A DNA stretch of 64,000 nt from a virus. Below are positions 1 to 25,701 of this stretch, one piece after another. Position 1 is the first letter of the stretch, and every line of letters begins with the position of its first letter. The stretch lies in IMG/VR virus record IMGVR_UViG_3300042308_001616, positions 58,861 through 122,860 of that record. One strand, 5' to 3'. Both the position numbers and the translations under genes were made by a program. The notes beneath the pieces were generated by a model that was not told the origin of the DNA, did no database searches, and saw nothing but the letters and a program-made list of their open reading frames with translations.

Positions 1-1089
1 GTGAATGAATCGTCTTTCCACCAATCGATGTCCAGATAATCATGTCCACATATAAAACCACCACTACGAACTTTTTTATACCAGTAATTTATATCACTTT
101 TCACACTTTCATATGAATGATTTGCATCGATATAAACGAAATCTAATGAAGAGTCGCCGAATATATCGGCGGCATTTTCTGAATTGGCTCTTATCATTAT
201 TGCTCTGTCTTCGTACCCAATAATACTATTCATTGCTTCTTCGTAAACATCACCGTGAATATTATTTGTACTATCTTGATACCCACTATAATCTAACGAA
301 CGCCAAACATCAACCATATAAAGTGTTCCTTCCCAAGATTCTAAAATTTGTTTTGATAAGTGTCCTTTATAAACACCTACTTCAACACCTTTTCCTTTAG
401 TGAATTCTTGCCCTATATTTTTAATATATTGTACTCTATCTATACCACTCTTTTTTGCACTGAATTCTAATTTTTTATTTTTTATATAGAATGCATCTCC
501 CCAACAAGAATCAGTATACCAGGTCTGTGCCCTTTCAAAACCTAAAGGTGATAATATTTGATCGAGATCTTCTAATGTAGGACAACCCTCATACATCTCA
601 ACTGTGTTGAATTCTGTGAAAAGGTAGTCTATAGACTTTAGTGTTTGTGATGCACCTTTCAATACATTCAATTCATTACCCTGTACGTCTAATACAAGCA
701 TATTTGAATCTTTTATATTGAAGTCATCGAGTTTGGCTACTTCAATTTCTAGTGATTGATTGAAATTTATATGTCCAAAAATTTCTTTGTGTTTGGCAGG
801 TTTTAGTATAGATGAACTTTGTCCTCCATTTTCGGTATCTATGTAGATAGTACTTCTACCAGCACTTTCACCTAAAGCCAAATTGTATGTTTTGGCATAA
901 TTATCATTACTTAAGTTTTCAACCAGAATATCATACATTTGTGGAAGTGGTTCAAACCAATGTGTTAACACCGATTCTCCGAATGTATTTTTATAATCTG
1001 AGTGCTCTTGACCAATGTGTGCACCAACGTGTATTATTCCACTTACGTTAAAATCGTAATTACTTTTATAATTTTCAAAACCTATTATC
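1..1089 (-). CDS. Partial (3' end off-window) fused methyltransferase: N-terminal FkbM-family domain plus C-terminal TylF/MycF-like class I SAM methyltransferase domain
   Basis: Reverse-strand reading frame is open from ATG at 1089 to the window edge. Translation contains IHVGAHIGQE...FEP...NLALGE (FkbM/Methyltransf_21 pattern), then GVEVGVYKGH...LYMVDVW...FVYIDANHSYESVKSD..GGFICGHDY (TylF-like Methyltransf_24 pattern). Not in the ORF track because no stop lies inside the window. Confidence 0.6.
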
Positions 1090-1204
1090 ATATTAGTTAT
1101 ATGATTTATTTTGAAAATGTTATACTATTTTTAGTAAGTCGTCTATATTTAAGTCTCTTATCACATTCCCGAGTTCGGAGTGTATACTTCTATTCTCTTC
1201 ATAG

Positions 1205-1558
1205 TCAGTTACATTTCTTCTTTACCCATTTTACTAATATGTCTCCGTGACAAGACTTTCCACCACCGCCTTCGTTTTTACACCAGCAACCCAATACTTT
1301 ATCCTTCAGTTCACAAAGAGAGTTCATAAGTTCTTCATTTGATAAAAGATATTCCTCATACGCTGCGACAATTTTCTTTCTCGGCGTTCCCTCTGGAAAA
1401 CTTTCTCTCAACAATTTAGGGTAAGCCCATTTGTTGTATTGGCCACCAGGTAACCTACCGATGTATATGTCATATGGTTCCTTTTTAAAATGCACGACTC
1501 GTATTTTGTGGTCGTGTTTTTTCTCAGGACTTTTGAAACTATCGAAAAAATCATCCAT
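1205..1558 (-). CDS. DUF4326-family protein
   Basis: C-terminal LGCWCKNEGGGGKSCHGDIL matches the DUF4326 signature (L.G..L.CWC....CHGDVL). Confidence 0.6.
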   Translation of the reverse strand: MDDFFDSFKSPEKKHDHKIRVVHFKKEPYDIYIGRLPGGQYNKWAYPKLLRESFPEGTPRKKIVAAYEEYLLSNEELMNSLCELKDKVLGCWCKNEGGGGKSCHGDILVKWVKKKCN

Positions 1559-1559
1559 A

Positions 1560-2033
1560 TCAATCCTCTTTTTCTGTCATCATAACCGCTCTCTTATAGT
1601 TCACGTAAGCGTAGACACCGTTCATTACATTCACTATAGTACTCAGAAACCTTATGTCGAATGTCAGACCGATGCCTACCAACACAGCGACGATAGAGAA
1701 GTGAACTATGCTAACCTTCACAAAGTCCTTCACCAAAAGGAGTCTTATTTTGTTAATAAACCTGTTCTTAATATTACCAGTGAGTGAGTCGATGTCTACA
1801 TCACGTTTACAGACCTTACAAAGACAATAATTTTCTTTTTCTTTTGGATTATAGAAATATTCTTCAATATCCTTTGTCGGTTGTTTACATAAATAACATA
1901 GGTACCCAACCTGTATACGCCACATTACACTGCTAGTATCTTTGAAACGTTTAATCATCTTATATGTGTAGTATATCAATCCTATGAACGAAATAATAGA
2001 AATTATTGTACTTATTAAAATCATGTTTATCAT
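1560..2033 (-). CDS. Hypothetical membrane protein with a CxxC...CxxC zinc-ribbon-like segment
   Basis: ORF with hydrophobic N-terminal and central segments and paired Cys motifs (CYLCK...CLCKVCK). Confidence 0.45.
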   Translation of the reverse strand: MINMILISTIISIISFIGLIYYTYKMIKRFKDTSSVMWRIQVGYLCYLCKQPTKDIEEYFYNPKEKENYCLCKVCKRDVDIDSLTGNIKNRFINKIRLLLVKDFVKVSIVHFSIVAVLVGIGLTFDIRFLSTIVNVMNGVYAYVNYKRAVMMTEKED

Positions 2034-2560
2034 TTTATTGGTAAGTATAATTTGTGTTTTTCACACATTTCAAGAACATATTCGTTGTGTTCTATAAATT
2101 TTGGATTAACAAGGCCAATTGTTATGTGTAAACTGTGAAATGGAGCACCTAAGCCAATTACATTTCGTATGTTCATTATGTCATCAGAATAAGCTTTAAT
2201 GTGCCACCACATTTTTTCACCTTTCTTATTACATCTAATTAGTGTTGGATCGTAATTAACAGTTACTTCTTTTCCGTGAAATAATTCTTTTGCTTGTAGG
2301 TATACATCATCATCTACGATCTCATTTATGGCAGTTACGTGTGTTCCTCTTACGGGATCGTTTAGTCTTCCTTTCCATTCGAAAGGACTGACATCTGGAA
2401 TCCTAAGACCAAATCTTTGTTCGAGTAGCCATTTGTAGTATCTGTAAGTCTCGTCACCATAAAAACGAACCATTGCCACCTTCTTCCAAGAAGATTGTTC
2501 TTCGTGTTTCCTGGATATATTAACCGGATCAAACTCAAGTATACCTTTTATCTCAAACAT
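2030..2560 (-). CDS. Putative 2H phosphoesterase superfamily protein (LigT / cyclic phosphodiesterase-like)
   Basis: Two H-x-T-x motifs (GTHVTAI and SLHITIG) spaced about 70 aa apart, as in 2H phosphoesterases. Confidence 0.4.
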   Translation of the reverse strand: MFEIKGILEFDPVNISRKHEEQSSWKKVAMVRFYGDETYRYYKWLLEQRFGLRIPDVSPFEWKGRLNDPVRGTHVTAINEIVDDDVYLQAKELFHGKEVTVNYDPTLIRCNKKGEKMWWHIKAYSDDIMNIRNVIGLGAPFHSLHITIGLVNPKFIEHNEYVLEMCEKHKLYLPIK

Positions 2561-2618
2561 AATTCATTTTTTACAAAGTTAGAAATTATTTGTGAATATA
2601 TAAAAGAAAAATAATTTT

Positions 2619-2804
2619 ATGGAAGATAAAAACATGAGACTTATAAAAAACGAACCAATTGGACAGGATGATATTACACTGTTGAGAGAAAAGTTTGTAA
2701 ATGAATATTCGAAAAGAAAGGGCTGGAATGCTAAGGAACTAAGTACCTCACAAATGCTTGAGATTGTTTCACAGAAAGAGTATAAAGGTCTTATATTAGG
2801 ATAA
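2619..2804 (+). CDS. Small hypothetical protein (61 aa)
   Basis: ORF preceded by a GAATATATAAAAG promoter-like motif and followed by a strong terminator. Confidence 0.4.
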   Translation: MEDKNMRLIKNEPIGQDDITLLREKFVNEYSKRKGWNAKELSTSQMLEIVSQKEYKGLILG

Positions 2805-2810
2805 TTTATA

Positions 2811-2839
2811 AAGGGTCACTTATAGTGACCCTTTTTTTT
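2811..2839. terminator. Rho-independent terminator hairpin (AAGGGTCAC-TTATA-GTGACCCTT plus T-run), bidirectional
   Basis: Perfect 9-bp GC-containing stem followed by TTTTTTTT; lies between convergent genes. Confidence 0.65.
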
Positions 2840-3422
2840 ATTCGCCTAATAGGTCATCCAATCTTCTATCTCTTATGAACGAGGCTTTCAAATCATCGGT
2901 AGTCGCTGACCAACCATCAGTCTTGCTCTTTATCAATGTATCTCTTATAGGTATCTGTATACCGTGACCTACGCCAACCACCGTCTTGTACTTACCCTCT
3001 ACTAAGTTAGAGTGTGCGGTATATTCCGACACGTTTTCATTGTTTGAAACAACGTGGTATGATTGTGTCATTATTATGAAATAAATAGCGAGGTCTTTTA
3101 CTTGCTCTACTATACGATCCAAAGACTCTGCATTCATTTCCCAAGCATCTATTACGACTATATCAGAACGAAAAAGAAGACCTTTGTCGTTGAGCATATT
3201 TGATAGTTCGGCGTTTGTACGGTATGCATGTGCTGGATGCATCTGATAATTAAGACCAATCTTATTATTATGTTCGAAGTAAAAAAGTATAGCCATATTA
3301 CCGGCAAGCTCGTGCATCTGACATATTTGTAGTACAGCCTTACTTACTACATTTTCTTCACCGGAGAAGTAGTTGAACCTTTTTAAATCTAACATATTGA
3401 TTGTAGTTCTTATACAAAACAA
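2838..3422 (-). CDS. Hypothetical protein (194 aa)
   Basis: ORF only; no recognisable motif. Confidence 0.45.
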   Translation of the reverse strand: MFCIRTTINMLDLKRFNYFSGEENVVSKAVLQICQMHELAGNMAILFYFEHNNKIGLNYQMHPAHAYRTNAELSNMLNDKGLLFRSDIVVIDAWEMNAESLDRIVEQVKDLAIYFIIMTQSYHVVSNNENVSEYTAHSNLVEGKYKTVVGVGHGIQIPIRDTLIKSKTDGWSATTDDLKASFIRDRRLDDLLGE

Positions 3423-3464
3423 AGTTAATCTTTTTTGTTATAAAAACAAAAATAAAATATCCAT

Positions 3465-4247
3465 ATGGATCAAACAATGTATCAACCAAGTGAGGGGATT
3501 AAGTTCACCTACATCATAGCATACAGACATAGCTTAGACAGATACCTTAATTTAAAAAGAGTTTTAGATTGGGTAAATGGTTTCAGTGGTTCTGAAGTTA
3601 TTGTTGTTGAGCAAGACACACACTCCAAAATATCACATCTTAATTTACCATGTAGAGTTATATTTACGAAATCTGATATACCTTTCAATAAATCAAACGC
3701 ATTCAACGTAGGTGTAAAAGCATCACGTGCTAATATAGTTGTGTTCGGTGATTCTGATTTGATAATGAAACCAGATGAATTCATCGATGCACTCAATGAT
3801 GTCCAGAATTACGAGATGGTGAATCCTTACCATTCAGTTATAGACCTTACTGCACAAGAATCTATGCAAGATCTTTCTAATATGGTAAGAATTGATCGAC
3901 CAGGACGTGGTGAAACTGATATACAGAAGGTTCCTTTGTGTGGTGGTATTTGTATATTCCGAAAAGATGCCATACTAAAAATTGGAGCATGGTGTGAAGA
4001 CTTTATCGGGTGGGGTGGAGAAGATGATTTCCAATCAGTTAAGGTAAAGAATTTCTTAAGTTGGGTTGAAAGACCAAATAGATGTTACCACCTTTTTCAT
4101 GAAAGGACTGCACCGGATATGAAATGGTATCAAAGAAACCTTCAGTTATTACAAAAATTGGGATCTCTTTCTAAAGAGGATTTACAAAGACATATAATGA
4201 CAAGTGCACCTAAGATTGGTTTAAAAAACAAATATGACAATTTCTGA
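3465..4247 (+). CDS. Glycosyltransferase (GT2/GT-A-like with galactosyltransferase-type C-terminal motif)
   Basis: DxD-like VFGDSDL and the hallmark FIGWGGEDDF motif (Glyco_transf_7C-like GWGGEDDD). Confidence 0.55.
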   Translation: MDQTMYQPSEGIKFTYIIAYRHSLDRYLNLKRVLDWVNGFSGSEVIVVEQDTHSKISHLNLPCRVIFTKSDIPFNKSNAFNVGVKASRANIVVFGDSDLIMKPDEFIDALNDVQNYEMVNPYHSVIDLTAQESMQDLSNMVRIDRPGRGETDIQKVPLCGGICIFRKDAILKIGAWCEDFIGWGGEDDFQSVKVKNFLSWVERPNRCYHLFHERTAPDMKWYQRNLQLLQKLGSLSKEDLQRHIMTSAPKIGLKNKYDNF

Positions 4248-4849
4248 TGGAAATTATAGAACCAAATCCAAGGCTATTAGAATATATAGCAGACGCATCA
4301 TCATTATTTACTGACTTTGATGGTGCCCGTCGTGAGTTCATTGAAAATGAAGAGTGGCATTATATACAATCCGAATTAGAACAAAACATATATCTTTTGA
4401 GTAGACTTGAAGAGAAAAAGTTACTACCTGAAAAGGTAGACGTATTCGATTGTGGAATCGGTCTGGGTACTACTATGTTTGATCTTTATCTTCAGTCTAA
4501 AGATATGTTAGGGAAGAATTTTACATTTTCAGGAGTAGAGAAACATGATAGGTATTCAGACTTTCTTGAACAGAAATTATTACATTATTGGGATGGTAAA
4601 CTAAATCTATATAGAGGCGATATAATGGATCGAGATTATACTTCGTATAATATGGTTTATACTTATTCGCCTTTTAAAACTGTTGAAAAGTTAGAAGACT
4701 TTTATAAAAAAGTGGTTAGTGAGATATCATCCGGTTCTATTATAATAGAGTCGAGGAATTGTGGAAAAGGTTTCGCTGAAACATTGTCACGTATACCTGG
4801 TCTCGAGGAGATAGAAGTAGATTGTATTTTTGTGTATAAAAAGAAATAA
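4247..4849 (+). CDS. Class I SAM-dependent methyltransferase
   Basis: Motif I VDVFDCGIGLGT (D/E-x-G-x-G-x-G). Start overlaps the stop of the upstream glycosyltransferase (ATGA). Confidence 0.5.
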   Translation: MEIIEPNPRLLEYIADASSLFTDFDGARREFIENEEWHYIQSELEQNIYLLSRLEEKKLLPEKVDVFDCGIGLGTTMFDLYLQSKDMLGKNFTFSGVEKHDRYSDFLEQKLLHYWDGKLNLYRGDIMDRDYTSYNMVYTYSPFKTVEKLEDFYKKVVSEISSGSIIIESRNCGKGFAETLSRIPGLEEIEVDCIFVYKKK

Positions 4850-4880
4850 AAAATGCCGACGTAATGTCGGCATTTTTTAT
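4850..4880. terminator. Rho-independent terminator (AATGCCGAC-GTAA-TGTCGGCATT plus T-run), bidirectional
   Basis: A-run, 9-bp stem, T-run. Confidence 0.65.
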
Positions 4881-5419
4881 TAAACCATCTCCACTCGGAG
4901 TTTTTCATATTTTGTAAGTAGTGCATACATTCTTTCCCACTCAGTATTAGGATCTTTCACAATTCGTTTACACCATTTATTGTTATTCAGATATTCTACA
5001 ATCATTCCGGGTTTGATATCAGATTTACTTTTAGGTAACCAATACCTAGTTTTCTCAACAAATGAGAACGATACCCCATTATGTAGGTATGATTTGTTCT
5101 TAGAATCCGTATTGAACATAATAATACCCATTGGTCTTTCATCACCACTATTGAATATTTTTCTCGGTTCAGTCTCACCTACGTATTTTATTATGGCACA
5201 CTCTTGTGTATGTTCATCGAGTAATCTCAATACATCAAATCGAAGTTCGTCGTTATCCACGGATTTATATGCTAAAACAGAGTCCTCGAAAATACCTTCA
5301 TAATATCCCTGTATAGGTAATATTTGGTATTCTTTTGCCCAGAGAACCGATGTCAATGCGTCCATATTCTCAGAAGAGATTATGACATATGATGTATTAG
5401 GTTGTTCCAATGCGCTCAT
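4880..5419 (-). CDS. Hypothetical protein (179 aa)
   Basis: ORF; a promoter-like motif (GGTTATATATTAATATT at 5422-5438) lies just upstream. Confidence 0.45.
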   Translation of the reverse strand: MSALEQPNTSYVIISSENMDALTSVLWAKEYQILPIQGYYEGIFEDSVLAYKSVDNDELRFDVLRLLDEHTQECAIIKYVGETEPRKIFNSGDERPMGIIMFNTDSKNKSYLHNGVSFSFVEKTRYWLPKSKSDIKPGMIVEYLNNNKWCKRIVKDPNTEWERMYALLTKYEKLRVEMV

Positions 5420-5423
5420 GCGG

Positions 5424-6653
5424 TTATATATTAATATTCTCTGACGCCTTTTTAATTATACCAAATTCTTCATATAACCTAAGATTGAATATGGCTTCTA
5501 TACTATCTCTGTGTCTAAAAGGTACTATGATACTATCATGTACGGTTGCCATTTTAACATCTGGCATTTGTTGCATCACATTCTTAACTATTCGGTTGAA
5601 CAATAATGAAGATTCTGCCTTCTGTAATTCGTAAGCAAGAACACGATAATCACCTTTTTCTTTTTTGTATAACTTTATGAAGTTGTGTATAGTTGGAAAT
5701 AGTGAAGAGAAAACTTTATCTGCCTTACAACTATGAGCATTCTTACCGAAAAGTACTCTATATGTCATCTCCTTTACTACCGATCTGTCATTATTACCGG
5801 TGGCATCCATTACATATTGGTAATAAATTCCATTTATAGTGAGATATTTGAAAAGTTCAAATTCATCCTGTTTTACCCATTTAGTACCGGAACTCTCAAT
5901 CACTTTTGTGAGAAAGAGTGGCTGACTATTTTTTATGTCTATCTCATGTGTAGGTTCTCCGTCTATGAGTAGGCACGTTTTGCGTATGAACGATTTAAGT
6001 ATTGTGAAGTTTGTGTGCATCCTACCATAATTATCAAAATGATAAAATATATGTTTGTCACCAATACACTCTACAGAATATACATTTCGGTTGTATATGT
6101 CTCCGTCAAAGTCTTTCAAATTATCTAAGTAGAATATTGCGGCAGATTGGTCTATCTCTACGTGAAATAAATCATCGACCAACTTCGCTTTAACATCTGC
6201 GTGTATAAGATCCGATCCTATATCGCCGTCTTCTACACGAGAGACACTATTCTTATATTTTCTGAGTAGTGTTTTGTCACGGTTTGAATACCTTAGTATC
6301 TTACCTTTTAGTACTTCGGAACAAATACTATATGATCGGGAGTTTCTTCCTGCTAAATAGTTTGACCTCATCTCTATCAATCGATTATCGACCAACCAGG
6401 ATATGTAGTGGTTATAAAGATGGCCGTACTTCTCTTTCAATATCGATGAATGAAGACTAAATTTGTTGTCTTTTTTGAAATAGTATTTTAGTATAAGACC
6501 GTGTATTATATCAACTAAGTAGGCCGTTTTTATTTTTTTATTGTTGTGTAGTATAGTTTTACAATCAACTAAGTATTGCATTTTGACTGGAAGGAATTGT
6601 AGTGTACGTTCCTTCAATTCTAGTTTTTCTCTTATACTAGTTACCGATTCCAT
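5424..6653 (-). CDS. Hypothetical protein (409 aa) with T7-RNAP / family-A polymerase-like motifs A, B, C (speculative)
   Basis: LLIDGEPTHEI (cf. T7 RNAP motif A FDGSCSGIQ), RSVVKEMTYRVLFGK (cf. T7 RNAP motif B RSVTKRSVMTLAYGS), ATVHDSIIV (cf. motif C ALIHDSFGT), in the correct order. Confidence 0.45.
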   Translation of the reverse strand: MESVTSIREKLELKERTLQFLPVKMQYLVDCKTILHNNKKIKTAYLVDIIHGLILKYYFKKDNKFSLHSSILKEKYGHLYNHYISWLVDNRLIEMRSNYLAGRNSRSYSICSEVLKGKILRYSNRDKTLLRKYKNSVSRVEDGDIGSDLIHADVKAKLVDDLFHVEIDQSAAIFYLDNLKDFDGDIYNRNVYSVECIGDKHIFYHFDNYGRMHTNFTILKSFIRKTCLLIDGEPTHEIDIKNSQPLFLTKVIESSGTKWVKQDEFELFKYLTINGIYYQYVMDATGNNDRSVVKEMTYRVLFGKNAHSCKADKVFSSLFPTIHNFIKLYKKEKGDYRVLAYELQKAESSLLFNRIVKNVMQQMPDVKMATVHDSIIVPFRHRDSIEAIFNLRLYEEFGIIKKASENINI

Positions 6654-6825
6654 ACAACTCCTTTATTTTACTAACTCTATTCACTGCACGAAAAACACTA
6701 GTAATTGTGTAACTTTTAAAGTCTATTTTCAGACCTTCGAAGGTCTCACGTGTACATTCTGCACGTAGCGGTTTTATTTTCGAGGTTACTTCTACCTCTG
6801 ACATATTTAGTTCTATGTTGTCCAT
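6637..6825 (-). CDS. Small hypothetical protein (62 aa)
   Basis: ORF only. Confidence 0.3.
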   Translation of the reverse strand: MDNIELNMSEVEVTSKIKPLRAECTRETFEGLKIDFKSYTITSVFRAVNRVSKIKELYGIGN

Positions 6826-6881
6826 ATTTTTTATATGTTATCGTTGTCGTTTGTTGCCAAAAAAACCCGAATGTGTCGGGT

Positions 6882-7079
6882 TTATATGTTGATGATGTTG
6901 TAATAAACATCTGGATACTTTATCTCATTTCTATCATTTGGATCGTATTTGAATCCTTTTTGATTCTTCTCGTCAAACAATCTGTTTGATTCGACAAGCT
7001 TCTCCATTGTAGGAGTTTTTGTTGGCTTTATAGACTGTAGCTCTCTGTGCCAGAAATCGTATCTCTCGTAGTCGTTCAT
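6882..7079 (-). CDS. Small hypothetical protein (65 aa)
   Basis: ORF only. Confidence 0.3.
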   Translation of the reverse strand: MNDYERYDFWHRELQSIKPTKTPTMEKLVESNRLFDEKNQKGFKYDPNDRNEIKYPDVYYNIINI

Positions 7080-7082
7080 TTT

Positions 7083-8402
7083 CTATATTGTTTTTTCACC
7101 AATTTCTGGTTTTCCACCTGGTGTTGGTTTTTTCTTTTTCTTATCTGATGCACCTGCTTCAATTTCGGAATATACGTCTGGATAGACTTCACCTGCAGCG
7201 TCTGTGTCATATTTAATATCAAAGAAGTCTCCGAAGTCAAGTAGTCCTGCTCTGGCTAATTCAACCTCACTAGCTCTTCCGAGATGTTCGTCAACCATTC
7301 CGGATAGGTCATCAACGAATCTGTTGAATAAAGAAACTGTACTATCTGTGAATACTCCTATTGGTCTTTTTTTCTTTTTGTTGAATGATCCAAGTATTAC
7401 TTTGAATATGTACTCTAATTTACTATTTTCTTCCAAATACTCTTTAGTTGTTCTATTATCAACCAACGATTTATTTATTCTGAATTTGTCTTTATCGAAA
7501 AATTCAGGTATGGTAAATTCAAAATCTAACAAATCTTCTTTGACTTCTGCCAGATAAAGGTTGTAAAGTCTACAAACTAAACTAAGGTATACCTCTTCAC
7601 GGTTGTTACCTCTAATTTTAACATCACGTATTTGTATAGATTGACAAAAGTTTAGAAAGTTTATCAATATAAGTGTGTATATCTCAACAAAGTCTGTTGA
7701 GTTTGTTTCACTAACTCTTTTATATAAAGGGTTTAGTAGTTCAAATGATGTATCACCTGAAGTGAGTCTGAATATTAGTTTTTCTACATTCCTCTGGAAA
7801 TCTCCATTCATAAGAAAAGAAGATTCTGTTGCAGGGTTTAACATTTTGTAGAAAAAGAATGTAAAGTTTTTCTCACCAAAAACATACTCGAGATCATCTT
7901 CACTGGTATTCAGAAAATACTTTATAGCCTCAATCATTCTTTCCGTCAGTCTTCCTTGAAATACTACCGGAATCATCTCAACATCAATCAGTCTGGCATA
8001 TTCTGCTAACTCCTCTATGTTGAAATCATATTTTCCACTTTTATGTATTCCTGTTATAACAAGACCATTTTTGGGAATTCTATCATATTCGATATTGGCA
8101 GGTTGATTATCTGGAAAATACTCAAAACAAAACCACCATTTTTTGTTCAATAGAGATTTAACACGTGTGTCGAGTGATTTGAAGTATTCAACCCCTGGGT
8201 TGTAATAGTTCTGCATTGCTAAGTCTACAAGGTTGATTGGTTCACTACTTAGTGATTTTGGTTTTATCGTGAATTCTGTACCATTCCAGTTTACCCATAT
8301 CTTACTACCCTGTATATCTTCGAGTACTATTAGTTCTTCATTGAATAACGAGTTCAGTAATTGTTCACTTTCCGACTCGTTCATATTTATGAGTTTGGCC
8401 AT
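7083..8402 (-). CDS. Hypothetical protein (439 aa) with a Lys-rich C-terminal tail
   Basis: Long ORF. C-terminus DKKKKKPTPGGKPEIGEK suggests nucleic-acid or surface binding. No KxDG ligase motif found. Confidence 0.5.
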   Translation of the reverse strand: MAKLINMNESESEQLLNSLFNEELIVLEDIQGSKIWVNWNGTEFTIKPKSLSSEPINLVDLAMQNYYNPGVEYFKSLDTRVKSLLNKKWWFCFEYFPDNQPANIEYDRIPKNGLVITGIHKSGKYDFNIEELAEYARLIDVEMIPVVFQGRLTERMIEAIKYFLNTSEDDLEYVFGEKNFTFFFYKMLNPATESSFLMNGDFQRNVEKLIFRLTSGDTSFELLNPLYKRVSETNSTDFVEIYTLILINFLNFCQSIQIRDVKIRGNNREEVYLSLVCRLYNLYLAEVKEDLLDFEFTIPEFFDKDKFRINKSLVDNRTTKEYLEENSKLEYIFKVILGSFNKKKKRPIGVFTDSTVSLFNRFVDDLSGMVDEHLGRASEVELARAGLLDFGDFFDIKYDTDAAGEVYPDVYSEIEAGASDKKKKKPTPGGKPEIGEKTI

Positions 8403-8430
8403 CTTTGATTTATGTTTTTTATCAGATTAG

Positions 8431-8446
8431 GTTATATATAAAAAAC
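8431..8446 (+). promoter_or_regulatory. Promoter-like motif GGTTATATATAAAAAACC upstream of the GT4/GT9 glycosyltransferase
   Basis: Member of the recurrent AATATATAA / TTATATATAA family ~20 nt before the ATG. Confidence 0.4.
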
Positions 8447-8467
8447 CATCCATCAAATGTTTATATA

Positions 8468-10588
8468 ATGTTTATGAAAAAGTTGATGATAATTGTACCA
8501 CATCTATCTACCGGTGGACTTCCACAATACGTGGCTAAACAAATAGAAATGTCGTGTGGTGAGTATGAAATATGGTGCGTTGAATGGGACAGTATAACTG
8601 GTGGTGTTCTTGTTGTACAACGGAACAAAATACAAAATCTTATTGGTACCGGACTCGTAACATTGGGAGAAGATAAAGATGAATTTTTACGATTATTAGA
8701 TGATGTTTGTCCGGACATTATACATTTCCAAGAGATTCCGGAAACTTTTATACAGAGGACAATACTTGATGATGTTTATAAAGATGATAGACATTGGCAA
8801 ATATTGGTGACGACTCACTCTTCGTATACAGAACCTTCTAATATATCTTATGGTGCAGACAGATTTGTATTAGTTTCGGACTGGAGTAGGAGACGTTTTG
8901 CATCTGTATATGGTGACGATAGGTGTTCAATTTGGGAATATCCTGTGGAAAAGAAGGTATTTGATAAAATTTCAGCGAAGAAGAAATTGGGATTTGAACT
9001 AGATAAGGTACATTTTCTACATGTTGGTTTATTCACACCTGGTAAAAATCAGAAATTGATTGTGGATGCTGCCAGATTATTACAATCGATGGATAATATA
9101 CGAGTACACTTTGTGGGTAATCAAGCTGAAAATTTTAGGGACTACTGGGAACCAATTATGGCAGACTTTCCGTTGAATTGTACTTGGCATGGCGAAAGAC
9201 ACAACGTTGATGATTTCTATAAAGCCGCGGATGTTTTTCTTTTTCCATCTCTATTCGAACTAAATCCACTTTCGTTGAAAGAGGCATCAGGATTTGGACT
9301 ACCAATAGCACTCAACAAATTAGAAACATATGATGGTGCGTGGGACAATTGCGTTGATTTACATATGGATCCGGAAGGTGCGTCACGTGTTATGTGTGAA
9401 ATGGTGGAATCGGTTAGTGGTTTTTTTGACGGAACACTATATGGTGAGTCTACTAAAATGACAGATATTGTAAGGAGATTAGATCCTTTGATAAGTATAA
9501 ACTTCATAAATGGACCTTATGTAGAAGTCAATAATGCACCTGGAGAAGAATTTGACTTAACAATAACTGATAGAAAAAGTGGATTTGTTGTTTATGGAAC
9601 AACAATTGGGAATGGATGTTGGGCACGTGCTAATTTGATGTATGTTAGAGATTGGAGAATAAGATTGGTACGTAAATCGGATGGTAAGGAATTTATAAGA
9701 GATTTCGATCCTAATGGTAAAAGAGTTTTTATATCTCTGGAATCTAGGTCAATTGGTGATACTCTAGCTTGGTTTCCACAGGTTGAAGAGTTTAGAAAGA
9801 AACATGATTGTAAAATCGTATGTTCTACTTTTTGGAATGAACAACTAAGTGGTCAATATCCTGAGATAGAGTTTGTTTCACCCGGTAGTGTTGTTGATAA
9901 CATATATGCTATGTTTAGTATTGGGTGGTTTTTTGATGGTGATTCGTATTGTCCGAGAAGACATCCACGTGACTTCAAAAATCTTCCATTGGGACAGACT
10001 GCAGCAGACATACTCAACATTGAGTATAAACAGGAGAGAGCTAGGTTGGATGTATCGAATGTTATAAAATCACGTAAGGTTGGACTTGGAATTCACTCCA
10101 CTGCACAAACCAAATATTGGAACAATCCAACCGGATGGCAGGATGTTACTAATTTTCTAACTAAGATAGGATATGAGGTTATTATACTATCCAATGAGGG
10201 TGATGGTTATATGGGTAATAACTATCCGTCGGGTGCGTCTGTATTACCATCTGGTAGTTTTGATCGACTCAAAGAAGAGATGGTTAGTTGTGAACTTTTT
10301 ATTGGTATAGGATCAGGTCTAAGTTGGTTATCATGGACTCTTGGAGTACCTACCGTACTCATATCGGGTTTCAGTCGTCCTGAATCTGAGTTTGAGGGAG
10401 ATGGTGTTCTTAGAATATTCAATGAAAGTAGTTGTAATGGATGTTACAATAGATACAAATTCAACGCAGGTGATTGGAATTGGTGTCCGGACCACGCAGG
10501 AACGGAAAGACAATTTGAGTGTACAAAGTCGATAACCGGAAGACATGTCATAGCAAGAATGATTGAAGAGGGTTTTGTTCATATATAA
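8468..10588 (+). CDS. Large bifunctional glycosyltransferase: N-terminal GT4 (GT-B, glycosyl transferase group 1-like) plus C-terminal GT9/heptosyltransferase-like domain
   Basis: N-terminus KKLMIIVPHLSTGGLPQYV and FLFPSLFELNPLSLKEASGFGLPIAL (GT4 E-x7-E region). C-terminal half has RVFISLESRSIGDTLAWFP... (GT9-like). ORF track start 8405 is a TTG; the ATG at 8468 follows a GGTTATATATAAAAAACC promoter-like motif. Confidence 0.6.
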   Translation: MFMKKLMIIVPHLSTGGLPQYVAKQIEMSCGEYEIWCVEWDSITGGVLVVQRNKIQNLIGTGLVTLGEDKDEFLRLLDDVCPDIIHFQEIPETFIQRTILDDVYKDDRHWQILVTTHSSYTEPSNISYGADRFVLVSDWSRRRFASVYGDDRCSIWEYPVEKKVFDKISAKKKLGFELDKVHFLHVGLFTPGKNQKLIVDAARLLQSMDNIRVHFVGNQAENFRDYWEPIMADFPLNCTWHGERHNVDDFYKAADVFLFPSLFELNPLSLKEASGFGLPIALNKLETYDGAWDNCVDLHMDPEGASRVMCEMVESVSGFFDGTLYGESTKMTDIVRRLDPLISINFINGPYVEVNNAPGEEFDLTITDRKSGFVVYGTTIGNGCWARANLMYVRDWRIRLVRKSDGKEFIRDFDPNGKRVFISLESRSIGDTLAWFPQVEEFRKKHDCKIVCSTFWNEQLSGQYPEIEFVSPGSVVDNIYAMFSIGWFFDGDSYCPRRHPRDFKNLPLGQTAADILNIEYKQERARLDVSNVIKSRKVGLGIHSTAQTKYWNNPTGWQDVTNFLTKIGYEVIILSNEGDGYMGNNYPSGASVLPSGSFDRLKEEMVSCELFIGIGSGLSWLSWTLGVPTVLISGFSRPESEFEGDGVLRIFNESSCNGCYNRYKFNAGDWNWCPDHAGTERQFECTKSITGRHVIARMIEEGFVHI

Positions 10589-10622
10589 AAAAATCCGAGA
10601 TAAATTATCTCGGATTTTTTAT
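10589..10622. terminator. Rho-independent terminator (AAATCCGAGAT-AAATT-ATCTCGGATTT plus T-run), bidirectional
   Basis: 11-bp stem flanked by A-run and T-run between convergent genes. Confidence 0.65.
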
Positions 10623-10635
10623 TATAAAAATTTTA

Positions 10636-11409
10636 CTATTTTCTTACCTTTACACTTACGCCTGTTTTAGAAGTATTCTTTCTCACTTTCTGGTTTTTAC
10701 CTTCGTTTATATTGACGGTTACCTTTTTAGACGCCTTCACAACGAATTTGTCTTCCCATGGTGTGAATAGTGTTCCATCCGCATTTACTTCGAGACGTAT
10801 ATTACCCTTAGCACCCTCGTTTAGTATACTCAGTTTCTTCATTGGTATTACACACTGTCCGTTTTTGATTTCACCGACAAACATAAGTGTCCACTCATCA
10901 CTCTCAACTATAAGTCTAACCTCTGTGTCAGATTGGTTCACACCCTCTACTGCGATATCACATCGGAAGTCTTCTGCTTTGTCTTTGTATAATTTATAAT
11001 ATTCATCAGTTTCGTTACTTTCGTTGTGACCGAAATCGAAGTGATTATCTTTTTCATAATCTTCTTCACTTTCACCAGTAGCAAGTCCGTTCATATACAC
11101 AGAGAACTGATTTATATACTCAGTTGTGTCCTTAGTATTATTGTATGTTTCTGATTTCTCAAAATCTTCAATGTTATTCATCACTGCATCGCCGTATGAA
11201 TCTCTCATAGAATCCGCAACTGCATCGTAATCCACACCATCAACGTTATTATTAACGATATAAGGATTCAATGAATGATCAATATGCTCGTCATCGTCTT
11301 CACTCTCTGACTCATTTATAATACCTTCTTTTATAAGGTTAGACTTCATTTTTGTCAATTTTTCAACATCTATAAAGTCTTCAAATCTGAATATGTCTTT
11401 TTCTTCCAT
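10636..11409 (-). CDS. Hypothetical acidic protein (257 aa), possible virion component
   Basis: ORF; acidic N-terminal half, beta-rich basic C-terminus. Confidence 0.45.
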   Translation of the reverse strand: MEEKDIFRFEDFIDVEKLTKMKSNLIKEGIINESESEDDDEHIDHSLNPYIVNNNVDGVDYDAVADSMRDSYGDAVMNNIEDFEKSETYNNTKDTTEYINQFSVYMNGLATGESEEDYEKDNHFDFGHNESNETDEYYKLYKDKAEDFRCDIAVEGVNQSDTEVRLIVESDEWTLMFVGEIKNGQCVIPMKKLSILNEGAKGNIRLEVNADGTLFTPWEDKFVVKASKKVTVNINEGKNQKVRKNTSKTGVSVKVRK

Positions 11410-11425
11410 AATTTATATATTTTTT

Positions 11426-11815
11426 TTAAAAATCAATTTTTACACTCACTTCATTTATGAATCGAGTGAATTCGTTTACGGTAACCTTAATTTCTTTTGT
11501 AGGTTCCTTTATTACGTCGTAGTCAACTCCTCTAACACGACAATATAACTTTATAATTTTCTTTGTATTTTCTTCACCAATGTCTTTTGACATCTGCATC
11601 CATGGATTTCCCTTTTCATATTCCCCTCTGTATGCACCACCTCCGTGTCTAATACTTTTTATTTCGAGTAATATGAAGACTTCGTCCCATGTTAGATCAA
11701 CGTTTTCCCATTTCAGGGTAACTTCTTCCCACTTTAGGTATTTTTTACCAGCAGAAACCTCGTCGTTTGTCCAATTTAGGTCTGTGTTTAGTAGGTTGGA
11801 ATGTATTAGAGGCAC
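11426..11815 (-). CDS. Hypothetical protein (129 aa)
   Basis: ORF with a promoter-like motif at 11831-11848. Confidence 0.45.
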   Translation of the reverse strand: MPLIHSNLLNTDLNWTNDEVSAGKKYLKWEEVTLKWENVDLTWDEVFILLEIKSIRHGGGAYRGEYEKGNPWMQMSKDIGEENTKKIIKLYCRVRGVDYDVIKEPTKEIKVTVNEFTRFINEVSVKIDF

Positions 11816-11882
11816 GTTTATTCTTTTTTGTCTTATATATTATTAAAACGTGGTTGGACTCATGATAGTTAATATATAAAAC

Positions 11883-14800
11883 ATGAGTTATAATCTGACA
11901 GGCGTCACGGTCTCGGGTTCCTACGGGAGATTGGTACAAGTTATACATGGTTCGCCAGACACTTACTATGATGGGTTTGGAAACCTTTTGAACCTTGGAC
12001 CGGGAACTGCATCTGTTGGACCTCAGGGACCTACAGGACCACAGGGACTTTCTGTCAATTGGATGGGACCATGGGATTCAATGATGAATTACTTTACATA
12101 TGATATGGTTTCATATGATGGTAATTCGTATATCTACATAAGTAATACACCAGGTTCTTCTATTACAACGCCTGACTCGGATCCATCTAAGTGGGATATA
12201 ATGACACAAAATATAAAAGGTGCCACTGGTTCTATTGGTGCCACTGGTTCAACCGGTTCTTCCGGTTCATCAGGAACTTCTGGTTCATCTGGTGAAAGTG
12301 GATCCTCTGGAACTTCTGGTTCATCTGGAATTAGTGGGTCATCAGGAACTTCTGGTTCATCTGGAATTAGTGGGTCGTCTGGAACTTCTGGGTCGTCCGG
12401 AATTAGTGGATCATCCGGAACTTCTGGTATAAATGGTGCGACCGGCCCAGGATTTGCAGGAATATCAGCATATATACACGTAACATCAACATATTCAATA
12501 ACTACAAATGATTATTATATAGATGCAAATGGTAGTTTTGATGTTATTTTACCTCTTGGTGTACAGGGTAGATCATATGCTATTAAAAATACAGGAACGG
12601 GTGTTATCACAGTAAAAGGCACAGCATCTCAGTTAATTGACAAACTTCCTTCTTATAATTTGGCATTCTATGATACACTAATAGTAGAATCAGACGGATC
12701 CAACTGGTTAGTTCAAAACACACAAACAAAAACATTTATTAGAGTTTATAACAACACCGGATCTATTATACCAAAAGGAACTGCTCTTAAAATACAATCA
12801 ACATATAATGGTATTCCGAGTGTTTCATTACCATTAGCAAGTTTACATTCAACAAATCAACAAGTAATAGGTTTGGCCTATATTGATATACCGAACGAGT
12901 CGGAGGGTATTGCTATATCAGGTGGTATTTTATCAGGTCTTAATTTATCATCATATTCAGTTGGAGATATTCTTTACTTATCTGATACGATAGCAGGTGG
13001 ATTTGTAAACTCAACAGACTCATTACAATTTTCATCAAGAACAAATCAAATTGGATATGTTACCAGTACAAGTTCTACAATAGGAACTATTCAGGTTGAG
13101 ATTAACAACGAAGATATAAATCTTACTTTAACAGACATTGAAAGAAATATATTGGAGGGAAATGTTATCTCAACTGGTGTTTATCATTATTTAGGAATGA
13201 CTAAAACTAGTTCGATTACTTTCACAGTTGCCAGTGCTTCTGGTTGGATTGTAAAGAATACCGGGGAATTAGCAACTAAACCTGATGTACAAAATGTTAT
13301 TTATGGTGGAACTACGAGTATTACAACACCATACCTAAATAGTGCAGATTCTACATATGTTTTATTAACAGCATCATCATCATTGATGCTACAATCAACA
13401 TTTCCATCACCACAACAGAGGCGAGAGAATATATTTTTGGGTAAAGTGGTTCACCCTGACAGACAAACAATACTAAACGTAAACAACACGGTTGATTACG
13501 ACGTATCACCGATGTCATCACTAAGAGATTTATGGACACCATTAAAACTTGTCAATCAGGGTATAATACCATCGGCACATAGTACGACATTAGAATTCAA
13601 TACATCAGCAGGAACTCTCTGGGGTAACGGAATTGGATGGACAACAAACGAACTAAATCCAAATAGTGTGTTAATTGGTGGTCAATCACCTGTCACTTTC
13701 CAATATAGGACACAGATGGGTGGATCCTTTTCCAACACAACGCTTATTGACCCCTCACACTACGATAACGCCGGCACTGTTACACTGGTTGGTGGGGGTA
13801 ACGGTTCTTCAACAAATCAGAGAATATATTTGTTCCCAACAGGACTTATAAGAGTTCAATATGGACAAACCGTATACGGAACATTATCCGAGGCAATTAC
13901 CGGAACACAGGAAGAACTTTTCACCGAATTCGTCAACAACAGAGATAATGGTATTTTGATAGGAATACTATCTATCAATAAGAATGCAACAAACTTATCC
14001 AATCCATTACAAGCAAGATTCAACTTTGTTTCTAAATTTGGAGAAATACTCGGTGGTTCTGGTGGTATTTCTACAACAACTCTACAACAAGCATATGATA
14101 ACTCATCAACACCAGAAATAGTTACTAATACCAGTCTGGGTGCAGTTTCTTTCAAAAGAGGAAGTGCGTCGGATACAGATAATGTGATTGAAGTATTGAG
14201 TGGTAACGGTTCTAATGGTGTAACGTTTAGTGTAACGGGACAAGGAAGAACGAATACAAATACTCTCACAATACACGGTATTGGTGCCACTGCCGGACTT
14301 ACCAATTATGTAGTTGTTGATAATTCGGGAAATACATACTACCAAACAGGGACGATTGGGAGTGGTAGTAATGGAAGTTCTGGTAGTAGTGGTGTGAGTG
14401 GAAGTAGTGGGACGAGTGGAAGTAGTGGAACAAGTGGTGTAAATGGTGCAGGTGGTACACTCGGATATTATGGTTCATTCTATGACACATCCAACCAGTT
14501 CAATTTGACTGCAAGTGTTCCTATGGCGATGACCATAAACTCACAATATGAGGCAAATGGTGTATCGATAGTAGATGGTTCAAAGATGACTTTCACACAT
14601 CCAGGAACTTACAACTTACAATTTTCAACAGTATTCAATAAATCAAATTCGAATTCGGGTTCAGTGGATATATGGTTTGCTAGAAATGGAGATTATATAA
14701 CAAACTCAAATACACTTTTCTATGCAGCAGGCCAGGCAACATCTATTGCGGCATGGAATTATATGACAACACTCAATGCCAATGATTATATACAACTTTA

Positions 14801-15464
14801 TTGGCAGTCAAATGACACAAGTATATCAATACAATCAACTGGCACACAATCTAATCCAGATAGACCAGCAGTTCCGTCAATAATACTAACTGCACAACAG
14901 GTTATGTACACACAATTGGGTGCAACTGGTAATTCTGGATCTTCGGGTACATCTGGTTCATCAGGAACTTCTGGTTCGTCCGGTAGTTCAGGTTCATCCG
15001 GTTCATCAGGAAGTTCAGGTTCGAGTGGTTCGTCAGGAACGTCTGGTCTTCTATTATTGAATGGGTCGACCGATAATGGAATAATAACACTAAACGGGTC
15101 AGTACCAAATGCAACTGTCGAAACAAATCTAACATTTGACGGAAACACATTACGTGCAAATGCAAATGCAACAACTGTTCCACTTATAATTGCATCCGGA
15201 TCGTCTACACAGGATCTCGTGAGGATAACACAAACAGGAACAGGAAACGCATTCGTCGTAGAAGATAGTTCGAATCCGGATTCAACACCATTCGTTATAA
15301 GTAATACCGGAAATGTTGGTATCGGGACGGCATCACCAACCGACAATTTATCAGTAGCAGGAAATGTTAAAATAACCGGAACTATGAGTGGTTCGAGTAA
15401 CAATACAATACTTACGGACACACTCATACAAGCAGGCTTATTATACCTTTCTAACAACTGTTAA
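11883..15464 (+). CDS. Collagen-like repeat fibre protein 1 (1193 aa; tail fibre / fibril)
   Basis: Three Gly-X-Y tracts (mostly GSS/GTS/GIS/GES triplets) at about 12231-12420, 14349-14440 and 14943-15070. The N-terminal motif GSYGRLVQV..G..YYDGFGNLL and the C-terminal module (ITQTGTGNAFVVEDSSNPDSTPFVISNTGNVGIGT...LLYLSNNC) are both shared with the downstream giant gene. Confidence 0.8.
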   Translation: MSYNLTGVTVSGSYGRLVQVIHGSPDTYYDGFGNLLNLGPGTASVGPQGPTGPQGLSVNWMGPWDSMMNYFTYDMVSYDGNSYIYISNTPGSSITTPDSDPSKWDIMTQNIKGATGSIGATGSTGSSGSSGTSGSSGESGSSGTSGSSGISGSSGTSGSSGISGSSGTSGSSGISGSSGTSGINGATGPGFAGISAYIHVTSTYSITTNDYYIDANGSFDVILPLGVQGRSYAIKNTGTGVITVKGTASQLIDKLPSYNLAFYDTLIVESDGSNWLVQNTQTKTFIRVYNNTGSIIPKGTALKIQSTYNGIPSVSLPLASLHSTNQQVIGLAYIDIPNESEGIAISGGILSGLNLSSYSVGDILYLSDTIAGGFVNSTDSLQFSSRTNQIGYVTSTSSTIGTIQVEINNEDINLTLTDIERNILEGNVISTGVYHYLGMTKTSSITFTVASASGWIVKNTGELATKPDVQNVIYGGTTSITTPYLNSADSTYVLLTASSSLMLQSTFPSPQQRRENIFLGKVVHPDRQTILNVNNTVDYDVSPMSSLRDLWTPLKLVNQGIIPSAHSTTLEFNTSAGTLWGNGIGWTTNELNPNSVLIGGQSPVTFQYRTQMGGSFSNTTLIDPSHYDNAGTVTLVGGGNGSSTNQRIYLFPTGLIRVQYGQTVYGTLSEAITGTQEELFTEFVNNRDNGILIGILSINKNATNLSNPLQARFNFVSKFGEILGGSGGISTTTLQQAYDNSSTPEIVTNTSLGAVSFKRGSASDTDNVIEVLSGNGSNGVTFSVTGQGRTNTNTLTIHGIGATAGLTNYVVVDNSGNTYYQTGTIGSGSNGSSGSSGVSGSSGTSGSSGTSGVNGAGGTLGYYGSFYDTSNQFNLTASVPMAMTINSQYEANGVSIVDGSKMTFTHPGTYNLQFSTVFNKSNSNSGSVDIWFARNGDYITNSNTLFYAAGQATSIAAWNYMTTLNANDYIQLYWQSNDTSISIQSTGTQSNPDRPAVPSIILTAQQVMYTQLGATGNSGSSGTSGSSGTSGSSGSSGSSGSSGSSGSSGSSGTSGLLLLNGSTDNGIITLNGSVPNATVETNLTFDGNTLRANANATTVPLIIASGSSTQDLVRITQTGTGNAFVVEDSSNPDSTPFVISNTGNVGIGTASPTDNLSVAGNVKITGTMSGSSNNTILTDTLIQAGLLYLSNNC

Positions 15465-15511
15465 GGTGTTAGTCCATTTTAATATATACCCAAAAGAAAA
15501 AGGTAAACCTT

Positions 15512-22813: not shown

Positions 22814-22832
22814 TGAAGGAAGACCATCATCG

Positions 22833-22845
22833 TAATATATAAAAG
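22833..22845 (+). promoter_or_regulatory. Promoter-like motif TAATATATAAAAG upstream of the first 140-aa paralog gene
   Basis: Motif family member 12 nt upstream of the ATG. Confidence 0.4.
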
Positions 22846-22856
22846 AAAAAACGAAG

Positions 22857-23291: not shown

Positions 23292-23293
23292 AA

Positions 23294-23725: not shown

Positions 23726-23731
23726 TAAGAA

Positions 23732-25674: not shown

Positions 25675-25701
25675 CGGTTTCCGGTTTTTATATATAGTCC
25701 T

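Follow-up and report, generated by a model that had tools for sequence, protein, structure and literature searches.

The 64,000-nt stretch of viral DNA described here (positions 58,861 to 122,860 of IMG/VR record IMGVR_UViG_3300042308_001616; hereafter "the window") carries, within a 17.3-kb block at 8403-25701, a gene for a bifunctional glycosyltransferase (GT) followed by genes for two giant fibers with collagen-like repeats. Judging from its gene content, the window derives from a T4-like tailed huge phage, with a gp23-type major capsid protein (MCP; 36785-38497) and a gp20-type portal (43613-45346) as head genes, a gp17-type terminase (58061-60205), and genes for a prohead protease and a clamp loader. 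The MCP is 72-73% identical to those of the metagenomic phages LR745206.1 (635 kb) and LR756502.1 (642 kb; 73% for the latter) and 53% identical to those of LR756504 (636 kb) and LR756501/LR756503 (735 kb). A megablast search with positions 1-12000 gave no nucleotide match in the phage genome collection. An earlier reading of this DNA (hereafter the original prediction) had proposed that four GT and methyltransferase genes upstream of the fibers together allow the phage to glycosylate its own Ser/Thr-rich collagen-like fibers. All four genes are present at or near the positions given and their domain calls are statistically solid, but the link to the fibers was supported for only one of them, the bifunctional GT gene, by virtue of its enzyme family, its co-inheritance with the fibers, and a recurrent pairing of the two in other genomes.

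The fiber module and its bifunctional glycosyltransferase

The block comprises the bifunctional GT, two small open reading frames (ORFs), both fibers, and four Ser/Thr-rich ORFs. In the following list, BAHT denotes the TibC/Aah family of bacterial autotransporter heptosyltransferases (NCBIfam TIGR04414), and lengths are given in amino acids (aa).

8468-10588 (+): bifunctional GT, 706 aa; an alternative TTG start at 8405 gives a 727-aa ORF
8468-9430: its N-terminal GT4 domain of the GT-B fold, approximately aa 1-320 (PF00534, E = 7e-13)
9500-10570: its C-terminal predicted protein O-heptosyltransferase domain of the BAHT family, approximately aa 345-700
9758-9760: codon of the predicted catalytic Asp of this domain; its four predicted Fe-binding Cys codons lie between 10433 and 10522
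10636-11409 (-): 257-aa ORF with an acidic N-terminus, conserved module member; no Pfam, PHROG, or NCBIfam match
11426-11815 (-): 129-aa ORF, conserved module member; no family match
11883-15464 (+): fiber protein 1, 1193 aa, with three (G-S/T-S)n runs (Pfam Collagen, E = 1.3e-18); proposed acceptor
15512-22813 (+): fiber protein 2, 2433 aa (Pfam Collagen, E = 2.6e-133); proposed main acceptor
22857-23291, 23294-23725, 23732-24592, and 24585-25484 (+): four ORFs with 21-26% Ser/Thr; no family match

The C-terminal half of the bifunctional GT had originally been described as GT9-like, and Pfam does score it weakly as GT9, but its sequence identifies it as a BAHT-family domain fused to GT4. A phmmer search aligned aa 383-715 with TibC (PDB 4RAP/4RB4; TibC residues 41-379) at 36% identity and E = 2.9e-57, and the equivalog profile TIGR04414, "autotransporter strand-loop-strand O-heptosyltransferase", scored 269.5 bits against a cut-off of 200 across profile positions 15-370 of 374. 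The lipopolysaccharide (LPS) heptosyltransferase I profile TIGR02193, by comparison, gave only 18 bits against a cut-off of 185 (E = 1e-3). The GT4 assignment of the other half stood, and the length of the protein changes slightly, from 707 to 706 aa; structural neighbors of its GT4 fold include WaaG, WbnH, and PglH.

With the active-site and iron-binding residues as defined in the TibC structure paper (PMC4358343), the counterpart of Asp110 is the Asp in SIGDTLAWFP (aa 452 of the 727-aa ORF), which is nearly invariant in 25 homologs. The sugar-binding residues Thr226, Lys230, and Trp305 are all retained, as are the four cysteines of the iron finger (Cys339/342/358/370 in TibC numbering), which all align and are nearly invariant in homologs. 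The enzyme also keeps the N-terminal beta-barrel region that is a BAHT-specific feature. Automatic annotation already gives phage homologs the name of the TIGR04414 equivalog. A search for an AIDA/TibA-type substrate gene found no autotransporter domain in the window ORFs scanned; the neighbors of the enzyme gene are the (G-S/T-S)n tail-fiber-like proteins.

Both fiber ORFs are assigned to the tail-fiber type of protein because they match PHROG tail-fiber families and because the central non-repeat domain of fiber protein 1 is homologous to annotated tail-fiber or tailspike proteins of isolated phages (38% identity to the tail fiber of Stenotrophomonas phage DLP6 by tblastn). Uninterrupted Gly-X-Y (GXY) periodicity, the criterion of PF01391, is present in both, with X and Y almost exclusively Ser or Thr. 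Counted in runs of at least 6, fiber protein 1 has 54 triplets and fiber protein 2 has 341, in which X is Ser (59%) or Thr (33%) and Y is Ser (91%); the runs of fiber protein 2 hold 634 Ser/Thr versus only 3 Pro. Downstream, the first three Ser/Thr-rich ORFs are paralogs of 144, 143, and 286 aa that share the N-terminus M..LTFTS.PF, and the 286-aa member is an internal duplication.

Co-inheritance and pairing with collagen-like fibers

The block at 8403-25701 is an accessory tail-fiber module that is gained and lost as one unit. In the closest relative, LR756502.1, homologs of 7083-8402 and 25702-26490 lie only 65 bp apart and the whole block is missing, and in LR745206.1 and contig L084 the same slot is filled by other large ORFs without GXY repeats and without BAHT. 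Neither the BAHT domain nor the central domain of fiber protein 1 has a tblastn match anywhere in LR756502.1 or LR745206.1, and the four Ser/Thr-rich ORFs and the fibers are absent from both. BAHT, the small module ORFs, and a GXY fiber are found together in the window and in L001, L004, L005, L014, L031, and L034, all six of which include the 257-aa ORF. No direct repeats flanking the 17.3-kb module were found, so there is no sign of site-specific mobility.

We also compared 80 related IMG/VR loci that were retrieved via the core gene adjoining the module (the anchor loci). BAHT is present in 10 of them, and a GXY ORF accompanies it in 7 of these 10 versus none of the 70 loci without BAHT (Fisher p = 3.8e-8); after duplicate loci had been grouped by hand, the counts were 5/2 versus 0/50 (p = 5e-6). 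The 129-aa ORF occurs in the same seven BAHT-bearing loci that have the GXY fiber (7/10) and the 257-aa ORF, as detected by Blast, in 5/10, and both are absent from the 70 loci without BAHT.

The pairing extends well beyond this locus. When IMG/VR was scanned with BAHT-domain patterns, 266 loci were found, and the best 80 of them represent 45 lineages at 90% identity. A GXY ORF (with up to 66% Ser/Thr in the runs) lies no more than 10 kb from BAHT in 26 of these lineages; within the same distance, 38 lineages have a GT4 domain, 26 FkbM or Methyltransf_24, 17 a cytidylyltransferase-like gene, and 15 a PfkB kinase. The PfkB protein finds its best PDB match in D-beta-D-heptose 7-phosphate kinase (E = 4e-9), and PfkB together with a cytidylyltransferase-like domain makes up the ADP-heptose enzyme HldE, so that ADP-heptose is the likely donor, at any rate in the phages with these neighbors.

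Methyltransferase domains are joined to BAHT in several ways. GT4, BAHT, and Methyltransf_24 form a single polypeptide in L124 and L010, while a GT4-Methyltransf_24/TylF protein is encoded directly upstream of BAHT in L029 and about 30 loci. FkbM sits between GT4 and BAHT in L014 and is fused to BAHT in L034, P0111, P0028, and P0087, with three different insertion positions among the BAHT fusion proteins. In LR756501 (735 kb), a 695-aa GXY ORF and the genes for GT4 and BAHT are transcribed divergently. In the cultured Microcystis phage Mel-JY01 (L171, PP395634.1), an FkbM-BAHT fusion, a protein of 1226 aa annotated as "methyltransferase FkbM" with a BAHT-like C-terminus, is directly preceded by a 1016-aa GXY ORF and a "structural protein". 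This GXY ORF (2-3052, +) comprises 606 aa of GXY repeats with 53% Ser/Thr, extends into the record start, and is itself unannotated, with minus-strand "hypothetical proteins" annotated across the same DNA. In a member of another phage group (L003; KRAE22-1 scaffold_21, a 178-kb contig, positions 639-12094), GT4-BAHT follows a collagen/Peptidase_S74 fiber, an APS kinase, a sulfotransferase, two 2-oxoglutarate (2OG)-Fe(II) oxygenases, and a GT2, a gene set which suggests fiber modification by sulfation and hydroxylation as well.

The repeat found in the phage fibers is, by genomic context, also a conserved partner of this BAHT subfamily outside phages. In a genome collection of 185,579 species, 13 loci match the same BAHT patterns (three of them from isolate genomes), and 11 of these 13 have a GXY ORF near a stand-alone BAHT homolog, directly beside it in most. 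Among them are loci on chromosomes or scaffolds from Methylobacter luteus, Methylobacter sp., and Ca. Methylomicrobium oryzae; the others are mostly contigs of metagenome-assembled genomes, some of which may be phage-derived. Of nine GXY ORFs that were translated, seven start, to the eye, with a hydrophobic stretch resembling a signal peptide, after which come repeats of the (GTS)n type or close variants of it, as in ...FAQNGADDGINSGTSGTSGTSGTSGTS....

The proteins beside the stand-alone BAHT genes in L174, L176, L178, and L180-L184 (Methylobacter, Methylomicrobium, and other proteobacteria) are small (GTS)n proteins, several of which carry duplicated Cys-containing domains, and they may represent an uncharacterized family of bacterial glycoproteins. 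The limited body of literature that we searched gave no account of phage BAHT homologs or of BAHT/(GTS)n pairing, and nothing relevant on collagen-like fibers with GTs in jumbo phages or on Mel-JY01.

Glycan enzymes and other genes around the module

The other three enzyme genes of the original prediction lie further upstream:

3-1091 (-): FkbM + Methyltransf_24 dual methyltransferase, 414 aa when complete (FkbM PF05050, E = 5.8e-17; Methyltransf_24 PF13578, E = 3.3e-16)
3465-4247 (+): GT-A glycosyltransferase, GT2/GT7C-like (Pfam Glyco_transf_7C/GT2), clade-wide core gene
4247-4849 (+): divergent class I S-adenosylmethionine (SAM)-dependent methyltransferase, translationally coupled to the GT-A gene

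These genes had been viewed as one set directly upstream of the fibers, but they are not contiguous: eight unrelated ORFs from both strands (a DUF4326 gene and several genes of no known family among them) separate the four enzyme genes. The notion of a single four-gene toolkit is not supported by the phyletic pattern either: the GT-A gene is present in 65 of the 80 anchor loci, its coupled methyltransferase in 6, and the FkbM + Methyltransf_24 gene in none of them at this locus.

The GT2-like call at 3465-4247 is borne out by Pfam and by an AF2 model with the GT-A fold (pLDDT 81), whose PDB neighbors are all GT-A enzymes, though the motif given as GWGGEDDD reads GWGGEDDF, which matches the motif of beta4GalT1; the DxD motif is D96-S-D98. 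Of its 820 homologs, 120 were listed; one of these has an identical sequence, and the others share 61-78% identity with the window protein. The only homologs in isolated phages, outside two huge phages, come from Cluster O mycobacteriophages and two Gordonia phages, with 27.5% identity to Corndog gp37 over 77% of the query (E = 2e-7). The Corndog cassette consists of the methyltransferase gp35 and the GTs gp36-38 between head genes, and it is reported to glycosylate capsid and tail-tube proteins (Freeman et al. 2023, as cited in PMC11600133 and PMC12363180). This kinship hints, by analogy, at protein glycosylation by the GT-A enzyme.

The coupling of the neighboring SAM methyltransferase to the GT-A gene was confirmed, as its start overlaps the GT-A stop codon (TGATG). 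Its class was confirmed at the level of the family: the protein has no direct Pfam or PDB match, but an exhaustive search gave 62 relatives, 27 of the 42 aligned match Methyltransf_31, and the family profile matches SAM methyltransferases in the PDB (E = 3e-10). In its D68-x-G-x-G72 motif, D68 and G72 are invariant and G70 nearly so. Besides the 6 anchor loci, it partners the GT-A gene in L001, L002, and L004. The usual partner is instead a protein of about 250 aa whose gene overlaps the GT-A gene end (e.g., L014 1361-2167, L086 26136-26888, and L031 3979-4719) and which is weakly similar to MCP residues ~440-540 (27-33% identity in several relatives); a second such paralog adjoins the Dam methylase gene. 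In this overlapping protein the GT-A enzyme may have a capsid-related partner or target.

The GT-A gene, its partner ORF, and homologs of 4880-5419, 5424-6653, and 7083-8402 form a conserved block that is present in the same 65/80 anchor loci, many of the remaining loci ending early on that side. Since this block is also found in LR756502.1, which has neither fibers nor BAHT, the GT-A gene does not co-vary with the fibers. Together with its coupled methyltransferase it forms a separate clade-wide unit, possibly with another virion protein as its acceptor. The ORFs at 5424-6653 (-) and 7083-8402 (-), which always accompany the GT-A gene, are 56-77% identical across relatives and have no Pfam, PHROG, NCBIfam, or PDB match.

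The predicted fusion of an FkbM and a second methyltransferase domain at 1-1089 was upheld, though the gene lies at 3-1091 on the minus strand and is cut by the window edge, with its C-terminal 51 aa beyond it. An identical full-length 414-aa protein is encoded on contig L168, which we reached via the DUF4326 protein; beyond this gene come NUDIX, PhoH, and a giant ORF without GXY repeats, and this leftward extension showed no further glycan genes. A direct PDB search with the full protein gave nothing useful. Its Methyltransf_24 domain shares 32-42% identity with the central part of the GT4-Methyltransf_24 proteins directly upstream of BAHT in ~30 loci, so that by analogy with the fusions and neighborhoods of relatives it may be a glycan O-methyltransferase of the module. 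Overall, the methyl and other sugar enzymes near the module are only loosely connected to the fibers.

Further features of the window lie apart from these subjects. A homing/HNH endonuclease of 716 aa (34492-36642, -; DUF7487, phrog_3339, E = 5e-134) sits beside the MCP gene in a patch of 27.7% GC that resembles a selfish insertion. Between the prohead protease and the portal lies a complete RNase II/R-type exoribonuclease gene (41178-43112, +; CSD2 + RNB + S1, RNB E = 1.5e-98), with a 53% identical copy in LR745206.1 and no match in the 45-kb stretch of LR756502.1 that was examined. Scattered genes with a theme of NAD, ADP-ribose, or RNA repair include DUF4326 (1205-1558), an ORF with two HxT motifs that is 2H phosphoesterase-like by eye only (2030-2560), ART-PolyVal (27178-27660), NADAR (30244-30750), and HAD_SAK_1 (56053-56589). 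The window also encodes a protein with a TnsA-like endonuclease N-terminal domain (46366-46893, -; E = 6e-14) and a Dam-type N6-adenine DNA methyltransferase (29216-30148, -; E = 3.5e-20).

Proposed fiber heptosylation, rival readings, and known systems

It seems fairly probable that the module encodes two giant fibers together with an enzyme that glycosylates them. In the cytoplasm of the infected cell, where TibC acts on TibA, the BAHT domain would transfer heptose, presumably from ADP-heptose, to the hydroxyls of Ser (possibly Thr) in the Pro-free (Gly-Ser/Thr-Ser)n repeats. The fused GT4 domain would then add a second sugar to the heptose, which is plausible because GT4 enzymes such as WaaG act on heptose acceptors, and the FkbM + Methyltransf_24 protein may O-methylate the glycan. 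The outcome would be densely glycosylated fibers whose glycan could stabilize or stiffen the Pro-free repeats, block proteases, or tune adsorption.

Several observations weigh against this reading. It is gene neighborhood and phyletic pattern that point to the fiber repeats as acceptor, and the acceptors of known BAHTs are serines in the strand-loop-strand repeats of beta-helices, not in GXY repeats. The Pfam Collagen match stems from low-complexity periodicity, and a triple helix in (GSS/GTS)n is only putative; the collagen triple helix is normally favored by Pro or hydroxyproline at X and Y. Within the enzyme, no conserved residue clearly corresponds to Arg286, on which TibC activity depends: this position aligns to a Leu, an Arg one position earlier lies beside an alignment gap, and the homolog alignment shows no invariant Arg. 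Position 300, which sets the choice between D,D- and L,D-heptose, is Gly in the window BAHT, so the heptose donor is uncertain, and no heptose-activation or other sugar-nucleotide gene was detected in the 64-kb window, so that the donor would have to come from the host or from genes outside it. The pairing with fibers is not obligatory either, as L124 and L138/L139 carry BAHT in the slot in opposite orientation with no fiber within 10 kb and LR756504 has BAHT with no GXY ORF within 12 kb. Finally, the FkbM + Methyltransf_24 gene lies 7.4 kb from BAHT among unrelated genes, and BLAST of its product against the BAHT-fused FkbM homologs returned nothing, so that its FkbM domain is linked to them by domain family, and only its Methyltransf_24 domain is directly similar to BAHT-adjacent proteins.

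We consider it unlikely that the GTs and methyltransferases build or modify a polysaccharide instead (host LPS core or O-antigen, capsule, or a lipid-linked glycan), in a form of auxiliary metabolism or surface conversion comparable to cyanophage LPS genes or Gtr-type serotype conversion. The weak match to GT9, a family of LPS heptosyltransferases, and the marginal TIGR02193 hit would fit such a role, as would WaaG, WbnH, and PglH among the neighbors of the GT4 fold, the label "capsule biosynthesis" given to GT-A homologs by the Joint Genome Institute (JGI), and the pyruvyl transferase, DegT, and acetyltransferase genes of relatives. However, the enzyme passes the BAHT equivalog cut-off and falls far short of that for LPS heptosyltransferases, it keeps the BAHT-specific four-Cys iron finger and N-terminal beta-barrel region, and we found no flippase, polymerase, Wzx/Wzy, or undecaprenyl-linked enzyme in the window.

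It is rather improbable that the targets of BAHT-GT4 are host proteins, such as autotransporter adhesins or (GTS)n proteins that the host secretes, so that infection would remodel the cell surface to exclude superinfecting phages or to change adhesion, with the fibers as mere neighbors in a hypervariable region. All characterized BAHTs do act on bacterial autotransporters (PMC4358343), the bacterial (GTS)n partners with signal-peptide-like N-termini indicate that a host could offer substrates, and the few phages with BAHT but no adjacent fiber would be accommodated. Against this, BAHT and the fibers are gained and lost together, the phage fibers themselves contain, hundreds of times over, the repeat found with the bacterial homologs, and no autotransporter is encoded nearby.

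There also seems little chance that these enzymes modify phage DNA by glycosylating hydroxymethylated bases for restriction evasion, a role that would most plausibly fall to the GT-A enzyme and its methyltransferase. That the GT-A gene is a well-conserved core gene independent of the fibers would suit this idea, as would a thymidylate-synthase-family gene nearby in L001 and the diverse folds known among phage DNA GTs (cited in PMC12619734). Yet the window showed no hydroxymethylase or base-hypermodification gene and only the Dam-type methyltransferase, the only GT-A homologs in isolated phages belong to mycobacteriophage cassettes that are reported to glycosylate capsid and tail tube, and the BAHT family has no known DNA activity. 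We give hardly any credence to a meaningless pile-up of GTs, methyltransferases, and fibers in a plastic region of huge phages, which could account for the eight interspersed ORFs on both strands and for the lack of a phyletic link between the fibers and either the FkbM + Methyltransf_24 gene or the GT-A unit but, for BAHT, is already disfavored by an association with GXY ORFs that turns up repeatedly in the 45 phage lineages and in bacterial genome records but in none of the 70 control loci of the same region.

Beyond fiber heptosylation in this phage, we tentatively propose, as a possibility that we hold with some doubt, a widespread and previously undescribed enzyme-substrate pair that spans at least 45 phage lineages as well as methanotrophs and other proteobacteria. 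A BAHT subfamily would be dedicated to Pro-free (Gly-Ser/Thr-Ser)n repeats, and in large phages, where the pair would serve tail fibers, GT4 and sugar O-methyltransferase domains would be joined to the enzyme, with phage genes for ADP-heptose synthesis in some cases. The product would be a hyper-heptosylated "glyco-collagen" in which glycan instead of hydroxyproline lends stability or stiffness to the repeat. To our knowledge, phage virion protein glycosylation has been demonstrated only in a few mycobacteriophages, and the BAHTs known to us all modify autotransporter adhesins of enteric pathogens in connection with virulence; the pairing is both widespread and unexpected for the BAHT family. 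If true, BAHTs would gain (G-S/T-S)n repeats as a second, much broader substrate class, and many large environmental phages (huge ones of >600 kb and at least one cultured cyanophage) would sugar-coat their receptor-binding fibers, with a bearing on host range, protease resistance, and particle stability. The pair would also provide a simple, portable tag and enzyme for dense O-glycosylation that could be used in glyco-engineering. Because E. coli makes ADP-heptose and the isolate Mel-JY01 has the same arrangement, the hypothesis is directly testable.

Among known systems, TibC/Aah is the closest. The C-terminal 360 aa of the window enzyme are homologous to TibC, with the catalytic Asp, three of four sugar-binding residues (Arg286 being the one not evident), and the four-Cys iron finger kept, and as in tibC-tibA the enzyme gene adjoins a gene for a repeat-rich, Ser-rich surface protein. 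The BAHT/(GTS)n gene pairs of bacteria likewise mirror the tibC-tibA and aah-aidA pairs of enzyme and substrate. Unlike TibC and Aah, the window BAHT is phage-encoded and fused to GT4, with methyltransferases fused as well in relatives, and its candidate substrate is a (Gly-Ser/Thr-Ser)n collagen-like tail fiber and not a beta-helical autotransporter passenger. TibC forms a dodecameric ring and transfers heptose from ADP-heptose to Ser, traits that are putative in the window enzyme.

The mycobacteriophage cassettes (Corndog gp35-38, Che8, and Myrna) combine GTs with an O-methyltransferase that are reported to act on the phages' own structural proteins (Freeman et al. 2023, as cited in PMC11600133 and PMC12363180). 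The window GT-A gene, a distant homolog of Corndog gp37, resembles them in being paired with a methyltransferase gene. The mycobacteriophages are reported to modify C-terminal tails of capsid and tail-tube proteins, whereas the window MCP ends in ...TINVTDENQFLN, which is not Ser/Thr-rich; the tail-tube gene lies outside the window. These phages, moreover, have no BAHT and no collagen-like fibers and infect actinobacteria, and the window GT-A gene varies independently of the fibers.

Giant viruses, to which the original prediction had likened this phage, offer a functional parallel: in Mimivirus (L230 and glycan clusters) and chlorovirus PBCV-1, virus-encoded and host-independent glycosylation of the virion surface involves methylated sugars and collagen-like genes, and a comparable system is proposed for this phage. 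The likeness is one of function, since no homology to Mimivirus or PBCV enzymes was detected, and it concerns a T4-like tailed phage whose repeats are built almost entirely of Gly, Ser, and Thr. Collagen glycosylation of the Mimivirus L230 type was considered for the fibers and rejected: Mimivirus modifies hydroxylysine of collagen that contains Lys and Pro, whereas no match to a 2OG-Fe(II) oxygenase, the type of hydroxylase required, was found in the window ORFs scanned and the repeats have essentially no Lys or Pro. The glycosylation systems of the Bacillus exosporium protein BclA and of the serine-rich-repeat adhesins, with their enzymes GtfA/B and SdgA/B, show no specific sequence relation beyond the GT4 fold, use other sugars (rhamnose/anthrose and GlcNAc), and are cellular, not viral. 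The likeness to the mycobacteriophage, BclA or serine-rich-repeat, and giant-virus systems is thus one of outcome, and by sequence it is the BAHT domain and, distantly, the GT-A enzyme that share ancestry with known systems.

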